DNA of 40,563 nt from a virus. Positions 16,241 to 40,563 of this stretch are shown here, piece after piece. The notes below the pieces were generated by a model that had not been told where the DNA came from, did not search any database, and saw only the letters and a list, made by a program, of their open reading frames with translations. Location of the stretch: the IMG/VR virus record IMGVR_UViG_3300006738_000023, positions 1-40,563 of that record. The stretch is one strand, 5' to 3'. Position 1 is the stretch's first letter, and every line of letters begins with the position of its first letter. The translations under genes were made by a program, and so were the position numbers.

Positions 16241-17509
16241 TTACCCCGCCGCCCCTTGCCACCACTGGGGCCGGTCGCTGTTGTGATAAAACGACGATCT
16301 TGGTTCTGTCTCGGTCAGAAACACGCTAAAACCACGCTCACACAGCCATTTATGCCAGCGCTCCAACGCGTCGAGAATCTGCCGCTCTGCGTAGGTGTGA
16401 ATGTAAGTACGATCTAGTTTTGTTAGGGCGTGATTTAACAGCAGCTCACCGGCTAGATACTCGACCCCGAGGTCAGCCCATGTAGTCCTGGCGAGCTTAC
16501 GCAGATCGTGAGAATGCCACCGCGCACCGCTGGCACTCACCACCAGATCAAACACAGCTGAACGGGATAACGGCTTACCCTTCGATGCACCAGGAAACAG
16601 ATACACGCCCCGGTAACCGTTCGCCTGCTGATATGCTCGGTAACGGGTCAACAGCGTGACAGCCATGGGCGTTAACGGCAGGCGGTGTTGTCGTTTGGAT
16701 TTTGTATTGTCGGTGGGGATAGTCCACGTGCGCGCGTCGAGATCGAACTGCCCCCACTTGGCTAGCCGCGTCTCACTGATACGGGTGCCGAACAGCAGCA
16801 TCAATAACAGCAGAAAACACCCCGGCGGCTCGCACGAACGCAGGGCGCGTATCACCTCGGGCACATCGGCAGCGGTCAGCGCACCCGCTTTAGCTGGGGT
16901 TTTCGCGTCGATGAAGTCGCCCACATTCACCCCGGCGAACGGGTCAGCATCCAACAGGTTCAGCTTACGGGCTTGCTTGAACGCGGCCTTGATCACCCCA
17001 AAAATCAGGCGCACATAGGCCACGGAATAATGCTCCTGTAGCGGCCACACCAACCCGCTATCGATAGACGCGGGCGTAATGCCCGCCAGCGGCTGGCCAC
17101 CGAACAGGGGCAATAGGTGCCGATTCACGGCGGTTTTGATCGATGATTTTCGAGTAGCGGATAACCGGCCATGGGATGCCGAACGGTCACGATACCAACA
17201 CAGCAGGTCGGCCACGGTTTCCCACGCATCGACGCCCACCGGCCCGGCAGGGTCAAGCGCCAGCTTGGCTTGAATCTCCGGCAAGCGCGCCAGCAAAGCG
17301 CGGGTGGTCAGCTCCGGGTAATTGCCCACCCGGTGCCAGTGGTCACGCCCACCGGCATAGCGCACCACGTACCAGCTCGCCCGCTCACGGCACGCATGAA
17401 AACGCACCCGCACCGGGTAGCGCGGGTCGCGTAACTGAGTAATCGAAGGGTCTTGTATGTGACGCTTGATAGCCGCGTCAGAGAGAGTAACCGCGAGGGT
17501 TTTGGGCAT
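16241..17509 (-). CDS. int: Tyrosine integrase, P4-like
   Basis: 422 aa. Catalytic signature: GTRISE (Arg), HDLRK (His-x-x-Arg), LLNH, and RTYIHTY (Tyr). N-terminal arm-binding-like domain. Confidence 0.9.
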   Translation of the reverse strand: MPKTLAVTLSDAAIKRHIQDPSITQLRDPRYPVRVRFHACRERASWYVVRYAGGRDHWHRVGNYPELTTRALLARLPEIQAKLALDPAGPVGVDAWETVADLLCWYRDRSASHGRLSATRKSSIKTAVNRHLLPLFGGQPLAGITPASIDSGLVWPLQEHYSVAYVRLIFGVIKAAFKQARKLNLLDADPFAGVNVGDFIDAKTPAKAGALTAADVPEVIRALRSCEPPGCFLLLLMLLFGTRISETRLAKWGQFDLDARTWTIPTDNTKSKRQHRLPLTPMAVTLLTRYRAYQQANGYRGVYLFPGASKGKPLSRSAVFDLVVSASGARWHSHDLRKLARTTWADLGVEYLAGELLLNHALTKLDRTYIHTYAERQILDALERWHKWLCERGFSVFLTETEPRSSFYHNSDRPQWWQGAAG

Positions 17510-22020: not shown

Positions 22021-22674
22021 ATGTCACAGCAAAGCGACAGGCAGGACAAAAAAGAGCTAATCGCACAGCGGCTAGTGGAAGTGCGCACCCACTTAGGGTG
22101 GTCGATCCGCGACGCAGTCGAAGCGCTCGGCTACGTGCGTTCTCGTTATACCAACTGGGAACTCGGCATTCGCATGCCCGGCTATCAGGAATTGGAAGAC
22201 ATCGGCAACGTAACTGGCTGCAATCCCGGCTATTTTGTCGGCTGGACAAACCGCATGATCGACAGCAGCTACGTCGTACTAGACCGCACCACGGTTAAAA
22301 CCCGCGTTGGCTCGATCACCGTGCAAAACGCCACCGATGTAGCCGCCTACCGCGACGACTACCTCGCCGAAAAAGGGCTAAAGCCCAGCAGCATTATCAC
22401 CGTCAAAGCCGAAGATGACGCCATGGAAGGCGTAATTAGCAAGGGCGATTTAGCCCTAATCGACATGAGCCGCAAACCCGATGCCGTGCGCGACCTGTTC
22501 GCTATCCTCGTGGGTGACCGCATTTGGCTACGCTGGATACGCCCGGAAATCAACGGCAGCTACACCATGAGCGCCGAAAACAGCCACCAATACCCCGATG
22601 AAACCCTCACCACCGGGCAGCTACAACAGCTCAACATCATCGGCCGCGTCGCCATCATCGAGCACGAACGCTAA
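22021..22674 (+). CDS. CI-like repressor (XRE HTH plus S24 LexA-like fold) with a degenerate catalytic dyad
   Basis: N-terminal HTH (LIAQRLVEVRTHLGWSIRDAVEALGYVRSRYTNWELG). The C-terminal domain aligns with lambda CI (GDRIWLRWIRPEINGSYTMSAENSHQYP versus [26 protein letters not shown]). However it has DDAMEG where GxSM is expected, and no Lys at the FKKL position. Confidence 0.8.
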   Translation: MSQQSDRQDKKELIAQRLVEVRTHLGWSIRDAVEALGYVRSRYTNWELGIRMPGYQELEDIGNVTGCNPGYFVGWTNRMIDSSYVVLDRTTVKTRVGSITVQNATDVAAYRDDYLAEKGLKPSSIITVKAEDDAMEGVISKGDLALIDMSRKPDAVRDLFAILVGDRIWLRWIRPEINGSYTMSAENSHQYPDETLTTGQLQQLNIIGRVAIIEHER

Positions 22675-26505: not shown

Positions 26506-27288
26506 ATGTCTATACCTACCATTTCCGTTTCTGGTGTTTCCCTTCCCTATATCGAATACCAGGGCCAACCAGCTGTAACCTTCGCCATGATCGACGCAGC
26601 ACACCAGCGACCGCAAGGCACAGCAAAACGTAACTTTAGATCGAACAAACGCCACCTTATTGAAGGTGAAGACTTCTATGTTGCTGATTCTAAAAGCTTG
26701 GACGAAATTCGTCCCAGCTATCCGGGCCTATTCCCAGCGATGGCCACAAGCATGTTTTTCTTCACCGAAACCGGCTACCTCATGCTGGTCAAATCGTTTA
26801 CCGACGACCTCGCTTGGCAAGTACAGCGCCAGCTAGTGAAAAGCTATTTCCGCGTAAAAGGGGCGATGCAGCCCACCGCCGCCGAACCCATCCCCGCGCC
26901 CATCGACCACCGCCAGCGGGAACAGCTTACCAACGCCGCCAACGCCGTGTTTCGCAATTTCGGCGGCATGCGCCAAAGCGCCACCGGCTGGTTTTATAAC
27001 GGCGTCCGCACGGACTACTGCCTAAAGCGCATCGAAGATTTAAGCCAAGACGACTTCCCGGCAGTCATGGAACGCCTGCAAGCCCTACGCCCCAAGGTGC
27101 GCCAATACGAAGATTTTAGGTATGACTTCCAACAGTCGTTTTTAAAAGAGGTCGTAGGCGAAGGCCAGCCCTACACGGCATGGATCAGCAAGCTAGCCGG
27201 TGGCCAACACCACATCGGCCAGCGCCCCAACTGGAAAGCCATCGCCAAGCAGGTGCTAATCCACAACGGCCTGCTCACCAAACAGTAA
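26506..27288 (+). CDS. ORF6N/KilA-N-type DNA-binding domain protein (antirepressor-like)
   Basis: The N-terminal 120 aa (QPAVTFAMIDAAHQRPQGTAKRNFRSNKRHLIEGEDFYV...FTETGYLMLVKSFTDDLAWQVQRQLVKSYF) fits the ORF6N/Ant N-terminal pattern. AGGAG 8 nt upstream of the ATG. Confidence 0.6.
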   Translation: MSIPTISVSGVSLPYIEYQGQPAVTFAMIDAAHQRPQGTAKRNFRSNKRHLIEGEDFYVADSKSLDEIRPSYPGLFPAMATSMFFFTETGYLMLVKSFTDDLAWQVQRQLVKSYFRVKGAMQPTAAEPIPAPIDHRQREQLTNAANAVFRNFGGMRQSATGWFYNGVRTDYCLKRIEDLSQDDFPAVMERLQALRPKVRQYEDFRYDFQQSFLKEVVGEGQPYTAWISKLAGGQHHIGQRPNWKAIAKQVLIHNGLLTKQ

Positions 27289-27492: not shown

Positions 27493-28137
27493 ATGGGATA
27501 CAAGATTGCCTTCGTGAGCCAAAAGGGCGGCGTCAGCAAAAGCACCCTAAGCCGGGCGCTGGGCACCACCTACGCCGCCGCTGGCTGGAATGTGAAAATA
27601 GCCGACCTCGACATCAACCAGTCTACCTCGTTTACGTGGCTGCAGCGCCGCCTTAAAAGTGGCGCATCGCCGGAAGTCGCGGTTGAAACCTTCGGCACGG
27701 TGGCCAGCGCTCTAAAGGTAGCTGACACCTACGACCTAATGATTTTCGACGGCGCGCCCCACGCCACCAAAGCCACCGCCGAAGTGGCCCGGCTTGCGGA
27801 TCTCGTCGTTCTACCCACCGCGCTAAGCGTTGACGACCTTGAACCCACCGTAAGGCTGGCCAACACACTCACCGGCCAAGAAGGCGTGCCCATCGACCGT
27901 ATCGCTATTGCGCTGAGCAAAGTGGGCAAGAGTAAAACGCAGCTGCAGGATGCCCGCGCCTACCTCGCCCATACGCCCTATTTTGTACTCGATGGCCAAG
28001 TACCCGAGCGCGACGCGTTTGTATTAGCCCAAGACAAGGGGCTGTCGATTGTTGAAACCCCCTTCAAAGGCCCGAAGGCCCAAGCGGATGAACTGATACA
28101 AAACATCATCAACCGCTTTGAATCACTTGTTAATTAA
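27493..28137 (+). CDS. parA: ParA-family partition ATPase (small, type Ib)
   Basis: Deviant Walker A SQKGGVSKST, A' IADLD, Walker B LMIFDGAP. 214 aa with no N-terminal HTH. Confidence 0.9.
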   Translation: MGYKIAFVSQKGGVSKSTLSRALGTTYAAAGWNVKIADLDINQSTSFTWLQRRLKSGASPEVAVETFGTVASALKVADTYDLMIFDGAPHATKATAEVARLADLVVLPTALSVDDLEPTVRLANTLTGQEGVPIDRIAIALSKVGKSKTQLQDARAYLAHTPYFVLDGQVPERDAFVLAQDKGLSIVETPFKGPKAQADELIQNIINRFESLVN

Positions 28138-30751: not shown

Positions 30752-31717
30752 CTAGTGTCGTCGCTGCCGGTCTAACCACTCTTCATACGGCGGGTATTTG
30801 ATGCGTACCAGCTTGTTAACCTCGGCATAGCTGGCACCGGGGTTATCGCGCACCACCTGGGCAAAGTAGGCGTTTGCCTCTTGGTTATAGCGGCGCTGCA
30901 GTTCTTTTTCATCGTTGGCGTCGGGTAGATCCTTCTTACCCCGGCGCTGCTTCTGCATCGCTCTGGGGCCGCTGCCTGCCATCGCTAGGCGGCTACGGGC
31001 CTGGGCGGCGTCGTACGCCTTGGGGTGCTGCTCGCGGTGCTTACGGCGGGCTTTCTTAATGCGGTTGCTGCACCAGTCGCGGAACTCCTTAAACTTCTGG
31101 TAGCCCACACGCCCCAGCGCCAGCAGAAAATCCGGGTTGAGTAGCTTCACAGCAGGCCGGGCGCGCTTAGTACCGTCGGCTTTCACCTCATGCTGCAAAT
31201 GCACGGTGAACGCGCCAGCGAGCTTCAAGCGCCGGAAGGCGCGCCAAAAGCGTTGGCTAGGCTCTGGGGCTTCGGGGGTGCTGCCGGGTGCCAGCAGGCC
31301 CGCCACGCGGGCAATTTCCGCACAGCTGCGGTGCTTGAAACCGCCATCGGGCAGGGGGGTGCCCACACGCAGACTGGCGAACTCGGTAAACTGGATAATG
31401 GCAGAAAGTACCAGCGACTCAGCAGCGCGGGCCTCGGATCGGTTACAACGGGGGTTACCATCGGCGTTCGCCTTACCGTTCAAATTCGCCAGGGTGGGCA
31501 ATAGGCCGGGGCTGTTGTAATAGGCTTTGGCACCGTCCACCAGCGCTTGCAGGGTGGCGGGTAGCCGCCCCTTTTTCAGCGGTTGGCAATAGCGGTCAAA
31601 TTCCCCTTTAGCAGGGTCGTGGCCACACCGGTTACCGGTTCCCCAGTATTTGCCGGGGTGTTCGTACGGCACGCGCCCCCACTTGCGGGGCTGCGCGTTC
31701 TCTGCTGCAGCATCCAT
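30752..31717 (-). CDS. repA: Plasmid-type replication initiator, IncFII RepA-like
   Basis: ATG at 31717 (the track start at 31723 is TTG). The central region (RSCAEIARVAGLL...SQRFWRAFRRLKLAGAFTV...ARPAVKLLNPDFLLALG) parallels R100 RepA (ITTLAIECGLA...ITRATRALTFLSELGLITY...YIPTDITFTSALFAALD). Basic C-terminus. The replicon context also supports the call. Confidence 0.55.
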   Translation of the reverse strand: MDAAAENAQPRKWGRVPYEHPGKYWGTGNRCGHDPAKGEFDRYCQPLKKGRLPATLQALVDGAKAYYNSPGLLPTLANLNGKANADGNPRCNRSEARAAESLVLSAIIQFTEFASLRVGTPLPDGGFKHRSCAEIARVAGLLAPGSTPEAPEPSQRFWRAFRRLKLAGAFTVHLQHEVKADGTKRARPAVKLLNPDFLLALGRVGYQKFKEFRDWCSNRIKKARRKHREQHPKAYDAAQARSRLAMAGSGPRAMQKQRRGKKDLPDANDEKELQRRYNQEANAYFAQVVRDNPGASYAEVNKLVRIKYPPYEEWLDRQRRH

Positions 31718-31773
31718 TCGCAAAATCTCGCTTGAGACTTGCCCGCGTCTTGTGCAGCAGTTAAACTCTGAGG

Positions 31774-31854
31774 AGTCGGTTTTGTGCCCCAGCCTTTAAG
31801 GTTTGCTGCCCAAAACATCCGAGAAGCCCCAGCGCCAACTGGGGCTTTTCTTTT
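31774..31854 (+). ncRNA. Candidate countertranscript (CopA-like antisense RNA) against the repA leader
   Basis: Plus-strand TTGCCC (31739..31744), 17 nt, TAAACT (31762..31767). Plus-strand terminator AAGCCCCAG-CGCCAA-CTGGGGCTT followed by TTCTTTT at 31824..31854. The predicted RNA is about 80 nt and fully complementary to the repA 5' leader. Confidence 0.4.
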
Positions 31855-31960
31855 GGGTGTCTATCTAGTTAATTTGTATGTCTTTTTTGCCTTCTAACCA
31901 ACGCCGCCCGGCGCTGGTCATCAACTCACTGTTTGCCAATCCTAGCATTACAAAAGCGTT

Positions 31961-31979
31961 TTGACACGAACTGTGTTAA
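31961..31979. promoter_or_regulatory. ACAC-N5-GTGT operator upstream of the repA leader
   Basis: TTGACAC-GAACT-GTGTTAA has 6/7 symmetric arms and the same architecture as the cI/cro operators. Confidence 0.5.
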
Positions 31980-32005
31980 AAAAATTTGCTCAAAACGCTC
32001 TGGGC

Positions 32006-32233
32006 CTAGGTGAATGCGGGGCTAGTGGGGCCGTGTTTGCCCGCGCGCTGCAGCTCATGCCCCAGCGCATCGCGCACCATGGCTAGAATCATGTGGCTGC
32101 CCGCGTGCGACTCTTCGCCGGTCACCTGCATAAATTCCATCATCACATCAATGTTCTGCAGCGTATCGCGCTGGTTAATGCCTACCAGTACGTTAGTGTT
32201 ATATCGCTGCGTCGTTCCCTGCTGCTCGCTCAT
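32006..32233 (-). CDS. 75-aa protein upstream of repA (CopB-position gene; SOS-controlled antirepressor candidate)
   Basis: ATG at 32233 with GGAGG 8 nt upstream (MSEQQGTTQRYNTNVLVGINQRD...). A LexA box lies 41 nt upstream. Confidence 0.55.
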   Translation of the reverse strand: MSEQQGTTQRYNTNVLVGINQRDTLQNIDVMMEFMQVTGEESHAGSHMILAMVRDALGHELQRAGKHGPTSPAFT

Positions 32234-32273
32234 TGTGTCGCCTCCCCTGCGCGCGTTTGCGCACACCTAAAAA

Positions 32274-32289
32274 CTGTTTATACATACAG
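32274..32289. promoter_or_regulatory. LexA (SOS) box CTGT-N8-ACAG
   Basis: CTGTTTATACATACAG has perfect CTGT/ACAG arms and an AT-rich 8-nt spacer. It is the only such site I found in the window. It overlaps candidate -10 elements (TATAAA, TATGAT) on the minus strand. Confidence 0.65.
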
Positions 32290-32542
32290 CATCATACTAC
32301 ACCGCATGACGCTAATGGAAAATTGCTAAGCGGGTTTATGCGCCTAAGCGATATGCTCAAGGGTTAGTTTACAGAGTTGCGCCATTTGCCAAAATTAAAG
32401 GCAGCGGCGCACTACTACCCCTATCAAAGCACGTTTTTCAGGCAGCGCAAGAAAAATCCAACCTTATGAATTTATTGATATTCTTTAATAATTTAATGAA
32501 CAACTAGCAGACACCTAAACGACACTTAATCGCCGTGGCAGC

Positions 32543-32570: not shown

Positions 32571-32591
32571 TTCGGGCACAAAAAAACCACC

Positions 32592-32783
32592 CTACGGCGG
32601 TGCGATGCCTTCCCAAAACTGGTCGCTTTCCCACTCCAGCTCCTGCAGTGCCCACGTGCGGGCGTCGCGCACTAGCACCCATTGGCCGCTGATCCGTTCC
32701 CAGCGGGAGGCGGCGCGCCACTGGCCATCGACGCGCACGCACTCTTCGGTATAGCGCCATTGATCGTCGATGCGTACGTACAT
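32592..32783 (-). CDS. Small Trp-rich protein with three xD(D/G)QW(R) repeats
   Basis: IDDQWRY, VDGQWRA and ISGQWVL are spaced 11-13 aa apart. Last gene of the tail module. Confidence 0.5.
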   Translation of the reverse strand: MYVRIDDQWRYTEECVRVDGQWRAASRWERISGQWVLVRDARTWALQELEWESDQFWEGIAPP

Positions 32784-32784
32784 G

Positions 32785-33153
32785 CTAGCTCCAGTGCTGT
32801 AGCCATATATCGCCGTCTTGGCCTATCGCGTCGTCGGGGGGCTGCGCCGAGATATAGACATTGCGGTTGGCCATGCTGCCCACGTTGGCGAGCTTGGTTT
32901 TTTCCTGCTGGGTGTAGCTTCTCTCTGACAAGCCCATGCCTTCCACGGCATCGACCTTGCCGTTTAGGGCTTCGTCGATTTCTTCTTGAGTGTAGTGGTC
33001 GGTAATGTCTTTGATGACCTCGCCAAAGCGGGCGAAGATGCGCCGGTCAGCCAGGTTAAACGCTAGCTGCCCCTCCCCTATCTGGGCAGCGGTGGGCACC
33101 GCGCCGGGCTGGCGGCTTATGCGCAGCCCGACGCTTTCTTGATAAGTGCTCAT
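32785..33153 (-). CDS. Small tail-fibre-like protein
   Basis: GEGQLAFNLADRRIFARF resembles the GELA.N..D..L motif of many phage fibre N-termini. Confidence 0.45.
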   Translation of the reverse strand: MSTYQESVGLRISRQPGAVPTAAQIGEGQLAFNLADRRIFARFGEVIKDITDHYTQEEIDEALNGKVDAVEGMGLSERSYTQQEKTKLANVGSMANRNVYISAQPPDDAIGQDGDIWLQHWS

Positions 33154-33764
33154 AGCGTGGCCGCTTCGATAAACAGGCTATCCACGCCCGCTTGATCCAG
33201 CCCCAGCGCGGCATACAGCGTATTGACCCACTCGGCCCGCCGCTCGATGCTCGTCGCGTATTCCCACTCGATCTCAGCCACTTGCCGTTGCTGCTCGTCG
33301 TCTATCGCAGCAATGGCATCACTCACGCTAGCCAGCAAACCATGCTTGGCCAGCACTAGCCGGGCTTGCCGTGGGGTAATGTCGCTCGGCACCGGCAGCG
33401 CGCTTTCTGCCAGCATGCCAAACTTAAACGGCGGCGTGACGGTCACGGTGCCGCCTTCGCCGTCGTCGATCTCGCGGGGCGTGGTGTCGTACACCGATGT
33501 ATACAGGGTAAGCGCGGCGGGGTCGTCTTGTAGCTGCTGATAAACGCGCTCAGCCGTGCCGGTGCCTGAATAAGCGGCTTCGGCTAGCACGGTGGCATAG
33601 GGTCGCCACTCGGCTAGATGCTCGGCAGTCAGGCGCACGTAGTGCAGGCGGTCGCCTGCGGCGTTGTGGGCTTGTGGGTCGCTGAGGGCGGGGCTTCCGT
33701 TGTCGTCGGTGAGGTGGGTGGGCAGCTCTGCGTTAGTGGGCAGGTGTAAAATGGCGTCGATCAT
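33150..33764 (-). CDS. Tail-associated protein (fibre assembly/accessory candidate)
   Basis: 204-aa ORF with ATGA coupling on both sides. Call is by position only. Confidence 0.4.
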   Translation of the reverse strand: MIDAILHLPTNAELPTHLTDDNGSPALSDPQAHNAAGDRLHYVRLTAEHLAEWRPYATVLAEAAYSGTGTAERVYQQLQDDPAALTLYTSVYDTTPREIDDGEGGTVTVTPPFKFGMLAESALPVPSDITPRQARLVLAKHGLLASVSDAIAAIDDEQQRQVAEIEWEYATSIERRAEWVNTLYAALGLDQAGVDSLFIEAATL

Positions 33765-35248: not shown

Positions 35249-36118
35249 TTATAGAATCTCCCGTAGGGCGTAGGAATTGGCGTAGGTGCCAAAGTAGGGG
35301 TGGCTCAGTGGGTTTACCTGCACTTGCCGCGCTAGGATCGTGGTTGCAAAACTCTCTGCCGTGACCTGAGTGCTTTCGGCGTAAAGAATTTCACCGTGTA
35401 GGCCAATCTTGCGTTGGGCGGCCAAGGCCCGCCGGAACCCTTCTTCTCGGTCTAAATGCTCTAACGCAAACGATACGGTGCGCTTGGGGGTGGCGGGGTC
35501 GGCGTACTCGGTGCGGTTGGCATCGCCTGCGGTTTCAAACTGCGTATCAATGTCGTAGCCCCACTGGCAGCCGTAGCTCATGTTGTAAGTGGGTTGCCAT
35601 ACATCCGAGATAAACACCCGGCCTAGGCTGATAAAGCCCGCCGGGTTGCTGCTGTCGTCAAACTCCACGCGAACGGCGCGGGCTATTTGCACTGTGGGCA
35701 AAAACAGCGTGGCCAGCGGCGTGAATGAAGCGCGGTCTTCGTCGTCAAATTCGCCGCCCCAAAAATTGTCGTATTCCCACTCCAGCTCGCTGGTGGAATA
35801 CACCGGGGGCCACACCCGTAGCCAGTCGCTTTGCCACGCTACTTGCGTGGCGGCATCGTCGAAGTAGACGGTAATCCGCCATGTGGCCACGGCGCTTAGG
35901 TTGTGCGCGGCCACCGCCACCACGCCCACTGGCAGGAAGCGCGGCAGGGTAATCAGCACCTGCGTATTCGCGGGGTTGAGCCCATTAGAACGGGCCTGCT
36001 CGGCTAGCGTGGGGTCTAGCAGTTTGCTAGCGGGTAGCGCCGGTTCCCAGCCCCCACCGCTCACCGCCGCGCCGTTGGCGTGGTTGGGCCAACACAGGAT
36101 GATTTTTCCCTCTTCCAT
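35249..36118 (-). CDS. Tail tip/baseplate protein
   Basis: 289-aa ORF in the distal tail block. Call is by position only. Confidence 0.45.
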   Translation of the reverse strand: MEEGKIILCWPNHANGAAVSGGGWEPALPASKLLDPTLAEQARSNGLNPANTQVLITLPRFLPVGVVAVAAHNLSAVATWRITVYFDDAATQVAWQSDWLRVWPPVYSTSELEWEYDNFWGGEFDDEDRASFTPLATLFLPTVQIARAVRVEFDDSSNPAGFISLGRVFISDVWQPTYNMSYGCQWGYDIDTQFETAGDANRTEYADPATPKRTVSFALEHLDREEGFRRALAAQRKIGLHGEILYAESTQVTAESFATTILARQVQVNPLSHPYFGTYANSYALREIL

Positions 36119-37597: not shown

Positions 37598-40563
37598 CGT
37601 GACGCCTCCAGGCGCGCGGCTGCACTCATATCATCAAGCGCGGCATTGCTCTTTTTCAGCTCGCTAATTTGCTGCTTGGCCGCTTCCTGCTGAACGGCCA
37701 CCCCCGCCGCGCCGTGCTGCTCAATTCTCTTGAGTAGCGCGGTTAGCTCTTTACGAAGGGTTTTGTTTTCGTTCAGCAGGTCGCGCACTACATCGTGCTG
37801 ATCGTTGCGGTTGAGTAGCGGGTAGTTGGGCAGTGCAGGCATGGGCAGCTCACGGCTCGGCAACTCGCGCAACCGGCCTGCCGTTTGCGCGGGCACGACC
37901 ATTTCATCCCGGTGAAGCTCTGCGATGTAGTTATCAAACGGCACGTTCCAAAGCCCTGTCGCGTGGCTGCCGTTCACAAAAAACGAATTAGGCGAGTATT
38001 GGTGGCCAGCCACCTCTTTCTCCCAATCCCCAATTTGGGACTCTCGAAGCATCGTCGCCGCCCGGTGCAGGATGTAGTCCCGCGCATCACTCGACAGGTT
38101 TTGATTATTTAGAACGTTGCCTCTAATGCGCTGCCAGTCCTCTTGATCCATAGCCCCCGTAGAGCCCTGGGCCGCATTGTTTGTGACAAACCGGTCATAC
38201 ACCGCTTGCTGCTGAGCGCTGAGTTGATCACTTGCACGGGCGATAATGCCTGCGCTTCTTTCGATCTCGCTCATCATCCATTGGGCACTCGACTGCCGAG
38301 CGCTGAAGTATTGCAGCTGGGCAATTTCGTCCTGTGTTTCCTTCATCCTTCTCAGCGTGCCGTCGAGAGACACAATGCTTTGATTTAATGTCACAAACTG
38401 GCCGGTCGAACGGGTCATTTCCGAGACTAACCCGCCCAGCTCTTGCAGCTGATCACGGGCGCGCTCTTCCAGATTTTGCGTGTTGCCCTCAGTGCCTTGG
38501 CTGCTACGGTTCAGCGCCTCCAAGCGGCTAATGGTGCCGCTGCCGTCTTCATCCAGCTGCTTGAAGATACGGCGCAACTCGGCATCACTGGCCAGCCCTT
38601 GAAACGCGCCGTAAAACTCGCCCCAATCAATCAGGCCGCTTGCGTCTAAGTCGATGCTGTCGAACATCGGTTTGAGGGTTGAGCCGATGCCGCTAGCCAG
38701 CCCGTTCAGCCGTAGGTTTGCTAGCTCCTGCTGAGTGATGATGCCGTCGCCGTTGGCGTCTACCTCACGAATGAGGCGGCTAATTTCGGCATCGGTGGCG
38801 TGAGGTGCCAAGGCGCTACGCACCTGGGCGGCTGTCAGCTGGTTAGCATCCAGGCGGGTCAGCTCGCGGCTTAGCTCTACCGCTAGCCGTTCGTCGGTAG
38901 GCATCGCTGAAATAACCACCGACTGCAGCGCGTCGCGGATCTCTTGCGCCAGATACTCCTCTGCCGTTATCTGATCGGGCAAATCTTTCAACGCGTCTAA
39001 CACATCGCCTTGAATGCGCTGGAACGCGCCACCACTGGCGTACATTGCTTCCCCGGCAGCCAGGTATTGCTCTGCGTACTGGGTAATGCTCTGTAGCGCG
39101 TTGCGGTCGCCTGATTGGGCAAGCACCAGCTGCCGGGCGAACTGGTCGCCTGCTTCGGTCAGGTTCATGCCGGGGGTGCCAGCGGTCGCGCTTTGCTGGT
39201 CTACCCACTGGCTAATGCCGTTAAACGTGCTGCTGAGCTGGTCGTTCACCTGGGCGAGCGAACGGGCATACTCCTGCCCAGCCCGCGTGGCCGCTTGCTG
39301 CGCGGCGGCTTCGTCCTCCATGGCCCAAATGCGGCGCTGGGTTTCCTGTAGCAGCGGGTCGATGCCTTGCAGCTCTCGCTCACGCTGCAGGGCCAACGCA
39401 GCTTGCTCGTCGCCCATCAGGCCCAAGAGCTGTAGCTGCTGGTCGAATGACTGCTTTTCAAACGCGGCGTAGGCGTTACGCACCTCGTTTTCTAGCGTGC
39501 TGATCTCGCCGTTTAGCTGGCTGAGGCGGTCAGCAAACACATCAACGCCGTTGCCAGTTTGCTCAAGCAGGGTTTGCAACCGGTCGAACGGGCCCGCTAG
39601 CTGCAGCAGCTGCACATAGTTACGCTGACCCGACTCGGTTAAGCGGTTTTGCTGCTCCACCAGCTGCCGGAAACCCTCATTGGTAGACGGCAGCGCTAGG
39701 CCCATGGCACGCAGGCTAGCGGCAACGTCCTGCTGTAAATCAGCGGCGCGCTCGGCATCGCTGAAAAACGCCGTGTAATAGCTGTTCTGCAAGCTGGCGA
39801 GCTGATCCACGCCGCCAGCCATCTGCGCGATGCTATCAGCGGCGCGCAATGCGCCAGCGGCTGAGGCGTCAAACTGCAGGTTGAGGCGGTCGCTACTGGC
39901 ATCTAACAACTGCATGGCGTTAGCTGCCTGCACCACACGACCGGTCAACTGTTCGGCATCCAGCCCTAGCCCGCGTAGGGAAGCGGAAAAATCACCATCT
40001 AACACATCGACCACGGCAAGCGTGCGAGTAGCAAGCTGGTTCGCGATCCCGGCGGCATCGCCTGCGTTTAAACGCACAGCCTGGGCGGCGCTGGCCATGG
40101 CCTGCGTTTTCTCTGCGCCGTTGTCTAGGTTGGCGACCGCCCCCACCATGGCGTTATCTAGCGCGGTGATGCCGTCTAAAAACGCCTTGGCGTTATCAAA
40201 GCCGTCGAAGGTTTCTTCTAAGCGGGCCGTGTTAGGGTCATAAAACCCTACGGTGCCCAGCGCCCCACGGCTGTAAACACCCTCCCCGTAGTTTTCAAAC
40301 AGGCCGCGACGCCCTGGGTCTACGTCCTGACCTACGGTGGCTAGCTCGAATTTAGGGGCGGTTTTGCCGCCACCAAACAGGCTGCTAATACCCTTAACGA
40401 TGCCGTCAGTAATGCCCAGACCTAGCACGTTATCGACCAGCAACGCGCCACCTACCCACGGCATGGCGGCGCTGGCGGCACCCATCAGGCCACCACCGCC
40501 CGCCGCTGCCGCGCCAGCAGCTGCGCTGCCAGCAAAGCCGGTATACGTGCCGGTGGCAGCAGC
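37594..40563 (-). CDS. Tail tape-measure protein, C-terminal part (968 codons to 40500; 40501..40563 duplicates 1..63)
   Basis: The track ORF starts at Met 40485, but the frame stays open upstream (GGC GGT GGT GGC CTG ATG) and joins 1..3132. The C-terminal motif NGSHATGLWNVPFDNYIAELHRDEMVVP is typical of tape measures. Combined length is 6039 nt, or 2012 aa. Confidence 0.85.
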   Translation of the reverse strand, partial: AAATGTYTGFAGSAAAGAAAAGGGGLMGAASAAMPWVGGALLVDNVLGLGITDGIVKGISSLFGGGKTAPKFELATVGQDVDPGRRGLFENYGEGVYSRGALGTVGFYDPNTARLEETFDGFDNAKAFLDGITALDNAMVGAVANLDNGAEKTQAMASAAQAVRLNAGDAAGIANQLATRTLAVVDVLDGDFSASLRGLGLDAEQLTGRVVQAANAMQLLDASSDRLNLQFDASAAGALRAADSIAQMAGGVDQLASLQNSYYTAFFSDAERAADLQQDVAASLRAMGLALPSTNEGFRQLVEQQNRLTESGQRNYVQLLQLAGPFDRLQTLLEQTGNGVDVFADRLSQLNGEISTLENEVRNAYAAFEKQSFDQQLQLLGLMGDEQAALALQRERELQGIDPLLQETQRRIWAMEDEAAAQQAATRAGQEYARSLAQVNDQLSSTFNGISQWVDQQSATAGTPGMNLTEAGDQFARQLVLAQSGDRNALQSITQYAEQYLAAGEAMYASGGAFQRIQGDVLDALKDLPDQITAEEYLAQEIRDALQSVVISAMPTDERLAVELSRELTRLDANQLTAAQVRSALAPHATDAEISRLIREVDANGDGIITQQELANLRLNGLASGIGSTLKPMFDSIDLDASGLIDWGEFYGAFQGLASDAELRRIFKQLDEDGSGTISRLEALNRSSQGTEGNTQNLEERARDQLQELGGLVSEMTRSTGQFVTLNQSIVSLDGTLRRMKETQDEIAQLQYFSARQSSAQWMMSEIERSAGIIARASDQLSAQQQAVYDRFVTNNAAQGSTGAMDQEDWQRIRGNVLNNQNLSSDARDYILHRAATMLRESQIGDWEKEVAGHQYSPNSFFVNGSHATGLWNVPFDNYIAELHRDEMVVPAQTAGRLRELPSRELPMPALPNYPLLNRNDQHDVVRDLLNENKTLRKELTALLKRIEQHGAAGVAVQQEAAKQQISELKKSNAALDDMSAAARLEASR
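40501..40563. repeat. Second copy of the 63-bp assembly overlap
   Basis: Identical to 1..63. Confidence 0.9.

Follow-up and report, generated by a model that had tools for sequence, protein, structure and literature searches.

Which gene does a LexA (SOS) box control when it stands just in front of a plasmid replication gene in a phage genome, and what might the product of that gene do? The question is raised by the IMG/VR virus record IMGVR_UViG_3300006738_000023, whose whole stretch of 40,563 nt, hereafter the window, was analysed. The element in the window is a circular phage-plasmid, since its closest database relative is a circular plasmid of Halomonas qaidamensis (45.9 kb) and since phage, ParA and RepA genes are encoded together. 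Between the box and repA lies a small open reading frame (ORF) of 75 amino acids (aa), for which an earlier note on this DNA had proposed a role as an SOS-responsive antirepressor or a replication switch. The best-supported reading, to which we give somewhat better than an even chance, is that this ORF encodes a LexA-repressed antirepressor specific for the CI-type repressor of the element. The features on which this reading depends are the following:

32579..32601, minus strand: intrinsic terminator closing the upstream tail-gene operon
32291..32299, minus strand: candidate -10 hexamers TAGTAT and TATGAT abutting the box, with a weak -35, as read from the sequence
32274..32289: LexA (SOS) box CTGTTTATACATACAG, palindromic CTGT-N8-ACAG with an A+T-rich spacer
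32241..32247, minus strand: ribosome-binding site GGGGAGG, 7 nt 5' of the ATG
32006..32233, minus strand: 75-aa acidic small protein, pI 5.7 (ATG 32233, stop 32006-32008), proposed LexA-controlled antirepressor
30752..31717, minus strand: repA, 321 aa, ATG 31717, phrog_20951
22021..22674, plus strand: CI-type repressor with a helix-turn-helix (HTH) and a degenerate S24 domain, proposed target of the small protein

The box was scored against the gammaproteobacterial LexA operator consensus, a 16-bp palindrome with an A+T-rich spacer; CTGTTTATACATACAG matches 16 of the 20 positions of the extended consensus and passes the 20-mer consensus scan. The pattern CTGT-N8-ACAG itself occurs twice in the window, against 0.40 copies expected from shuffling. 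The second copy, CTGTGGGCAAAAACAG (35692-35707), lies within a tail gene, has a G+C-rich spacer, fails the 20-mer consensus scan and is probably a chance occurrence. The perfect box that had been called unique is thus the sole good box in the window, although its bare pattern is not. The end of the box is 40 nt away from ATG 32233 on the minus strand, and a further -10-like hexamer, TATAAA, is located within the box; the candidate -10 segment at 32291-32299 is invariant across all Halomonas-type loci. The ORF is well initiated (GGGGAGG and ATG 32233) and has the same orientation as repA, as had been noted, both genes being on the minus strand. Since the tail-gene operon ends in the terminator at 32579-32601, which is predicted to insulate the LexA-controlled candidate promoter from late transcription, the ORF does not appear to be merely the end of the late transcript.

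Relatives of the locus were gathered via four queries, namely RepA, the small protein, CI and ParA. All 14 loci collected first carry exactly one CTGT-N8-ACAG, just 5' of the small ORF that precedes repA; among them are the P2-like phage-plasmids of Aeromonas and Edwardsiella, in which the flanking DNA bears no relation to that of the window. A perfect box is present at the same place in Delftia pHQS1 and in Pseudomonas phage PARCL1pr (CTGTTCATATATACAG), and likewise in L021-L027, among them an element of Pseudomonas type whose tail module differs, in the Vibrio parahaemolyticus element L030 (CTGTGATTATATACAG at the orthologous position) and in three more distant lineages (L097, L098, L110), while that of L033 has one mismatch. 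In total, about ten divergent lineages of phage-plasmids have the box at the orthologous position, their sources being Halomonas, Aeromonas/Edwardsiella, Vibrio, Pseudomonas, Delftia and metagenomes, and three complete genomes (the window, PARCL1pr and Edwardsiella pEI-2083-2) have a single strong box each. By our estimate, about 0.002 boxes would be expected by chance per 150-nt upstream region. The box is not a chance occurrence, because about ten lineages whose flanks cannot be aligned keep a 16-bp palindrome at one position. LexA control of the small ORF, as already suggested from the window alone, is therefore strongly backed by phylogenetic footprinting and is very likely.

If cleavage of LexA opens this promoter after DNA damage, what would the small protein act on? 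The CI of the window matches an HTH domain and Peptidase_S24, and its catalytic residues are degenerate. Indeed, at the position of the catalytic Ser it reads DDAM, against GMSM in LexA and GNSM in lambda CI (Ser to Ala), and at that of the catalytic Lys it reads WLRW, against VKRL in LexA (Lys to Arg). At the Lys156 position, each of the 22 relatives whose alignment extends over it has Arg, as does the window protein (23 proteins in total), whereas Ser is retained in most CI relatives and gives way to Ala in the two Halomonas alleles. The Ala-Gly pair is missing from the aligned cleavage site of the CI relatives, save one member with AG. The same CI family is present in Aeromonas/Edwardsiella (38% identity) and Pseudomonas (34%) elements. 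With such catalytic residues self-cleavage is unlikely, in agreement with the non-cleavable repressor supposed earlier, and SOS induction would need another route. The universal Lys-to-Arg change in several genera further suggests that S24 is a pseudo-protease domain here, retained for another purpose.

The best available argument that this other route is the small protein comes from the co-variation of its alleles with those of CI, compared pairwise in six Halomonas-type elements. Two alleles, A and B, are distinguished, the type B alleles being those of L089 and L091. The features used in this comparison are:

31886..32207, minus strand: approximate limits of the allele-specific cassette, comprising the ORF from about codon 10 and about 120 nt past its stop, from DNA alignment and protein comparison
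27493-28137, plus strand: ParA
26506-27288, plus strand: ORF6N-domain protein, 260 aa, PHROGs class anti-repressor

In A-A pairs the small proteins share 69-100% identity and the CI proteins 93-100%; in the B-B pair these values are 87% and 90%, and in A-B pairs they fall to 41-49% and 41-44%. RepA shows 81-97% identity over all pairs, across the allele swap, and ParA, encoded between the small-protein and CI loci, is reshuffled independently (72-99%). The Pearson correlation with the small protein is 0.93 for CI and 0.34 for ParA. The exchange is sharply bounded at the DNA level: the promoter, the box, the ribosome-binding site and the first 9 codons are nearly identical in types A and B, the protein identity within the cassette is about 45% between A and B, and near-identity resumes through repA. 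Since the small protein and CI stay paired at a distance of about 10 kb while the backbone recombines, this allele pairing points to a specific partnership.

The ORF6N gene was also considered as a CI-specific partner and was rejected, because it lacks a box and does not vary together with the CI allele: elements of both types carry a version 86-88% identical to that of the window. Control of the LexA-box promoter by CI itself was dropped as well, the CI/cro region and this promoter having only chance 8-mers in common.

Judged by the searches made, the small protein defines a family that no database describes. No match was found for it in Pfam (E up to 0.1), PHROG or NCBIfam. Word-indexed searches retrieved 32 relatives, and an exhaustive profile search yielded 59 clusters at 50% identity, with lengths of 57-100 aa except for three longer partial matches (P0033, P0085, P0086). 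All named members are called 'hypothetical protein', most are on contigs of about 35-45 kb, and Salmonella and Citrobacter are also named as sources of cluster members. The family has the signature NPL[IV]..N..DT[IV] followed by two amphipathic helices, and the AlphaFold model of the small protein is a helical hairpin (helices 21-38 and 46-66, mean pLDDT 75) preceded by an ordered extended segment. Acidity is a family trait, with a median pI of 4.9 and a pI below 6 in 55 of the 59 members. Ratios of nonsynonymous to synonymous substitution rates (dN/dS) against orthologues are 0.07-0.54, which indicates purifying selection and hence that the small ORF is a real gene.

As to where the family occurs, tblastn of the small protein gave no match in the phage collection and, among plasmids, only that of H. 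qaidamensis, and the Aeromonas-type module was not found in any complete E. coli genome. The family contexts examined are all phage-plasmids, in which the ORF stands between the end of the tail module (sipho-, P2- or Mu-like) and repA. In non-phage plasmids with the same RepA family the slot holds other small ORFs and no LexA box, and in ordinary Aeromonas plasmids these small ORFs are unrelated. The family together with the box is therefore a phage-plasmid speciality, as ordinary plasmids of the same RepA family lack both. In one such plasmid, Pseudomonas antarctica pP27494_2 (L015, about 1300-1510), an unannotated ribbon-helix-helix-like ORF (MAVEDKHVLLGFMIDQQHKRRF...) was seen 5' of the antisense hairpin and repA; it is likely a CopB-type regulator missed by annotation.

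A minor difference was observed at the end of the window ORF. Relative to its closest relatives (70 aa, ending in ...GKHGPH), it carries a 1-nt deletion near the 3' end, in the region 32006-32030, and the resulting frame shift gives it a tail 5 aa longer (...GKHGPTSPAFT).

Under the preferred reading, events would run as follows. In a lysogen, host LexA bound to the box at 32274-32289 would shut the promoter of the 75-aa acidic helical-hairpin protein. After DNA damage, RecA-stimulated cleavage of LexA would open this promoter, and the small protein would then bind and inactivate the CI of the element, which presumably cannot inactivate itself, having lost the S24 catalytic Ser and Lys. Inactivation of CI would derepress the lytic genes. 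Moreover, transcription continuing past the hairpin after the ORF would yield more repA mRNA and would collide with the antisense promoter, and the raised repA mRNA may help the sole replicon to escape copy control.

Several points weigh against this reading. The co-variation represents one A/B split in six related elements, with few independent events, and the coupling is loose in H. qaidamensis, where the small protein is 70% identical and CI 93%. The small gene lies about 10 kb from CI and accompanies repA in every lineage, so that a replication role would fit too. No homology to any known antirepressor was detected, and comparison of the AlphaFold model with the structures in PDB and BFVD returned only non-specific helical hairpins and one 97%-identical unnamed viral protein (A0A516KYL4). 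Finally, no good -35 was found for the promoter of the small ORF, the consensus promoter scan called none on the minus strand here, and a good box is missing from two relatives, one arm being degenerate in L031 and no box at all being present in L032.

How far the small ORF may be connected with replication depends on the region between it and repA, in which the following features were recognised:

31955..31999, minus strand: hairpin AGCGTTTTGA-N25-TCAAAACGCT, then UUUUG, just past the stop of the ORF, z-score -1.95
31939..31967, minus strand: candidate repA promoter GTGTCA-17-TAGGAT, with a spacer ending in TGc that makes an extended -10 (TGcTAGGAT), from a reading of the alignment
31824..31847, minus strand: target stem-loop in the repA leader, AAGCCCCAG-UUGGCG-CUGGGGCUU
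31739..31856, plus strand: antisense (counter-transcribed) RNA gene, with a predicted RNA of about 80 nt at 31774-31856
31739-31744 and 31762-31767, plus strand: antisense promoter TTGCCC, 17 nt, TAAACT
31821-31856, plus strand: intrinsic terminator hairpin of the antisense RNA with a T-run, from the terminator scan

The repA leader has the anatomy of control by a counter-transcribed RNA, as judged at the sequence level. On the sense strand, an A-run is followed between the ORF and repA by a G+C-rich stem-loop with a UUGGCG loop, which we take to be typical of IncFII- and IncI-type targets. On the opposite strand, an antisense promoter (TTGCCC or TTGCTT, 17 nt, TAAACT or TACACT) lies about 60-70 nt from the terminator hairpin. 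This -10 (TAAACT/TACACT) and the hairpin are conserved in all lineages, among them non-phage plasmids from Aeromonas and Pseudomonas that encode this RepA family. The stems differ among lineages by paired changes (GCCCCAG/CTGGGGC, CCCGAGG/CCTCGGG, GGCCAGCC/GGCTGGCC); a further lineage pair, CCCCGGGT/ACCCAGGG, has one mismatch. No Rfam family reached its threshold for the antisense RNA, the score of ctRNA_p42d being 20 bits against a gathering score of 50. RepA of the window was considered as an IncFII_repA (PF02387) homologue, and this was rejected, as it has no Pfam hit and its hhalign comparison with IncFII_repA-type relatives is not significant; in the distant members L030 and L033, the downstream Rep is Pfam IncFII_repA.

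Just past the stop of the ORF, the type A hairpin is a long interrupted stem, whereas type B has at the same place a G+C-rich stem followed by U7 (z-score -3.85). The hairpin at 31955-31999 may act as a partial terminator or an attenuator, and both alleles keep the candidate repA promoter hexamers (GTG[T/G]CA/TAGGAT). Transcripts from the LexA-controlled promoter may read through into repA, possibly only in part. A boost of replication on induction is attractive because RepA seems to be the sole replication initiator of the element: no other initiator, helicase or primase was recognised among the genes of the window, several early ORFs of which have no assignment. Joint derepression of replication is possible but uncertain: the ORF is followed by a U-run hairpin, and farther downstream repA has a conserved candidate promoter of its own.

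A bolder proposal unites these elements, and it must be regarded as doubtful. One LexA operator would be a master switch: the conserved, extended NPL[IV]..N..DT segment at the N-terminus would dock like a pseudo-substrate in the dead S24 cleft of CI, read-through into repA, colliding with the antisense promoter, would lift antisense-RNA control, and the cassette of antirepressor and hairpin would form, with CI, an exchangeable immunity determinant. If so, binding by a separate protein would replace self-cleavage, the replicon would shift from plasmid maintenance to lytic amplification, and the immunity determinant would span a broad group of marine and clinical phage-plasmids.

Could the locus be a replication switch only, in which the LexA promoter raises repA transcription after damage, overriding the antisense-RNA copy control for lytic replication, and the small protein is a replication accessory that, for instance, counteracts the antisense RNA or assists RepA as a cofactor? 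The ORF is directly 5' of repA in every lineage, even with another Rep family (IncFII_repA in L030 and L033), the antisense-RNA gene lies between the two, RepA is the sole initiator recognised in the window, and the main sense-strand hairpin lacks a good U-run. However, the allele of the small protein follows CI and not RepA, which stays at 81-97% identity across the swap, a U-run hairpin 3' of the ORF in both alleles and the conserved candidate repA promoter stand between the LexA promoter and repA, and the family is missing from ordinary plasmids that have the same RepA and antisense architecture; taken together, these observations make a role limited to replication unlikely. The place of the ORF also recalls plasmid R1, in which a small gene with its own promoter is followed by a second promoter for repA, the gene of an antisense RNA and repA itself, and the ORF shares the slot of CopB (RepA2) of R1/R100. 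The correspondence with CopB that had been drawn from position accordingly stands as far as the slot is concerned, with the antisense-RNA gene between ORF and repA and with IncFII_repA in the distant relatives, but it does not extend to the protein, nor does RepA of the window score as IncFII_repA as in IncFII replicons. As a copy-number repressor of this type, the small protein would bind DNA and repress the downstream repA promoter; the inverted repeat at 31955-31999 overlaps the candidate repA promoter within the cassette, so that a swap of protein and operator together is conceivable. That the protein is acidic (pI 5.7; family median 4.9), that it has no Pfam match to DNA-binding or CopB-like families, that its model is a plain two-helix hairpin and that plasmid relatives carry a ribbon-helix-helix-like protein in the slot all argue against it. 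Furthermore, a repressor that is itself under LexA repression would be absent at steady state, which makes little regulatory sense, and ordinary plasmids with the same RepA lack the protein. A CopB-type function is thus very improbable.

Another SOS accessory function, without a direct role in the choice between lysis and lysogeny, would also account for LexA control, the protein then acting on the host, for instance as a modulator of RecA or LexA in the manner of DinI, PsiB or GIL01 gp7, as an inhibitor of cell division or as a small toxin. DinI is one example of an acidic protein of similar size under LexA regulation, and mobile elements often carry SOS modulators; GIL01 gp7 is reported to act via LexA (PMC4551915). 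Nevertheless, no match to Pfam DinI or to any other family was obtained for the small protein at E up to 0.1, and neither co-variation with a phage CI allele nor confinement to one group of CI-bearing phage-plasmids is expected of a host-directed factor, and we hold this explanation to be improbable. As for a box that is non-functional in the natural host, with the ORF expressed constitutively or with the late genes, it would fit the weak -35, the silence of the promoter scan and the two relatives without a good box, but chance does not explain the conservation of the palindrome across about ten lineages whose flanks are unalignable, and terminators part the ORF from the late operon; little credence can be given to it.

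A CI-specific antirepressor under LexA control would have precedents. Tum of phage 186, a protein about twice as large as that of the window, is LexA-repressed and binds a prophage repressor that cannot be cleaved, thereby inactivating it. GfoA and GfhA of the Gifsy prophages are likewise reported to be LexA-repressed antirepressors that bind and inactivate non-cleavable prophage repressors (PMC3121763). These three proteins are best called functional analogues, regarded as unrelated to the window protein without direct sequence comparison, and 186 and Gifsy are integrated prophages without a plasmid replicon, unlike the element of the window.

The closest precedent would be the linear phage-plasmid N15 with its LexA-controlled antirepressor AntC. 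The CI-like repressor CB of N15 is non-proteolytic (PMC10432266), and its induction begins with the expression of a small SOS-regulon gene (PMC4488713, PMC11652158). The right arm of N15 has one good LexA box, CTGTGTTTATATACAG (record position 39564). Behind this box comes an ORF for about 75 aa, probably antC, which NC_001901 does not annotate:

L034 17565-17832 (record 39564-39831): LexA box and ORF of N15

The probable AntC ORF resembles the window protein in size class and in its acidic helical character. Homology between the two was considered and rejected, the hhalign comparison of the family profile giving a probability of 0.1%. The N15 gene also stands alone, far from repA, unlike the window ORF; N15 RepA is a large multidomain protein, in contrast to the antisense-controlled IncFII-like layout of the window, and CB matches the CI of the window only weakly and in the HTH region. 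The parallel that the earlier note drew with Tum and AntC hence survives as a functional likeness, without sequence homology to the probable AntC ORF, and the SOS-responsive antirepressor proposed there gains its support from the co-variation with the CI allele. In vibriophages, the small antirepressors Qtip, smORF72 and smORF63 are encoded beside repA and inactivate the cognate cI allele-specifically; these modules are SOS-independent, are driven by a dedicated transcription factor and serve phages with an autoproteolytic cI (PMC10432266). Compared with these linear plasmid-like phages, the trigger in the window would be LexA, and CI is degenerate.

The literature search found no paper describing the present module. 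The mechanism proposed is of a known kind and would be widespread in phage-plasmids; it would be carried out by a new protein family encoded inside an antisense-RNA-controlled replicon. To our knowledge, the exit from the plasmid state has barely been described beyond P1, N15 and VP882, and the module would offer an SOS induction route for circular phage-plasmids of Halomonas, Aeromonas, Edwardsiella, Vibrio, Pseudomonas and Delftia. Accessory genes are often carried by phage-plasmids, and one relative is the Aeromonas plasmid pACil-blaVCC-1, named after the VCC-1 beta-lactamase gene. By its place within the replicon control region, the module may link DNA damage, including that caused by antibiotics, to lysis and copy number, and the natural A and B alleles provide a ready comparison of specificity.

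With regard to the remaining gene content, the window includes terminase, head and tail genes and also encodes RdgC. Relatives of its RepA are present in 185 plasmid records, many annotated 'plasmid replication protein repA'. A tyrosine integrase, ParA and a plasmid RepA are encoded together in the window, and likewise in PARCL1pr and pEI-2083-2; integration and dimer resolution are candidate roles of the integrase. In close relatives, the stretch from the tail fibre genes to the LexA box contains genes for a reverse transcriptase, a bAvd four-helix bundle and a DUF4376 protein, and it looks like a diversity-generating retroelement. The coordinates are:

16241-17509, minus strand: tyrosine integrase of the window
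L001 8954-10635 and L021/L059 7358-9543: reverse transcriptase/bAvd/DUF4376 region in the H. qaidamensis plasmid and in Halomonas sp. contig DPWA01000223

In the window, the counterpart of this retroelement-like region (32592-33764) consists of small ORFs alone.

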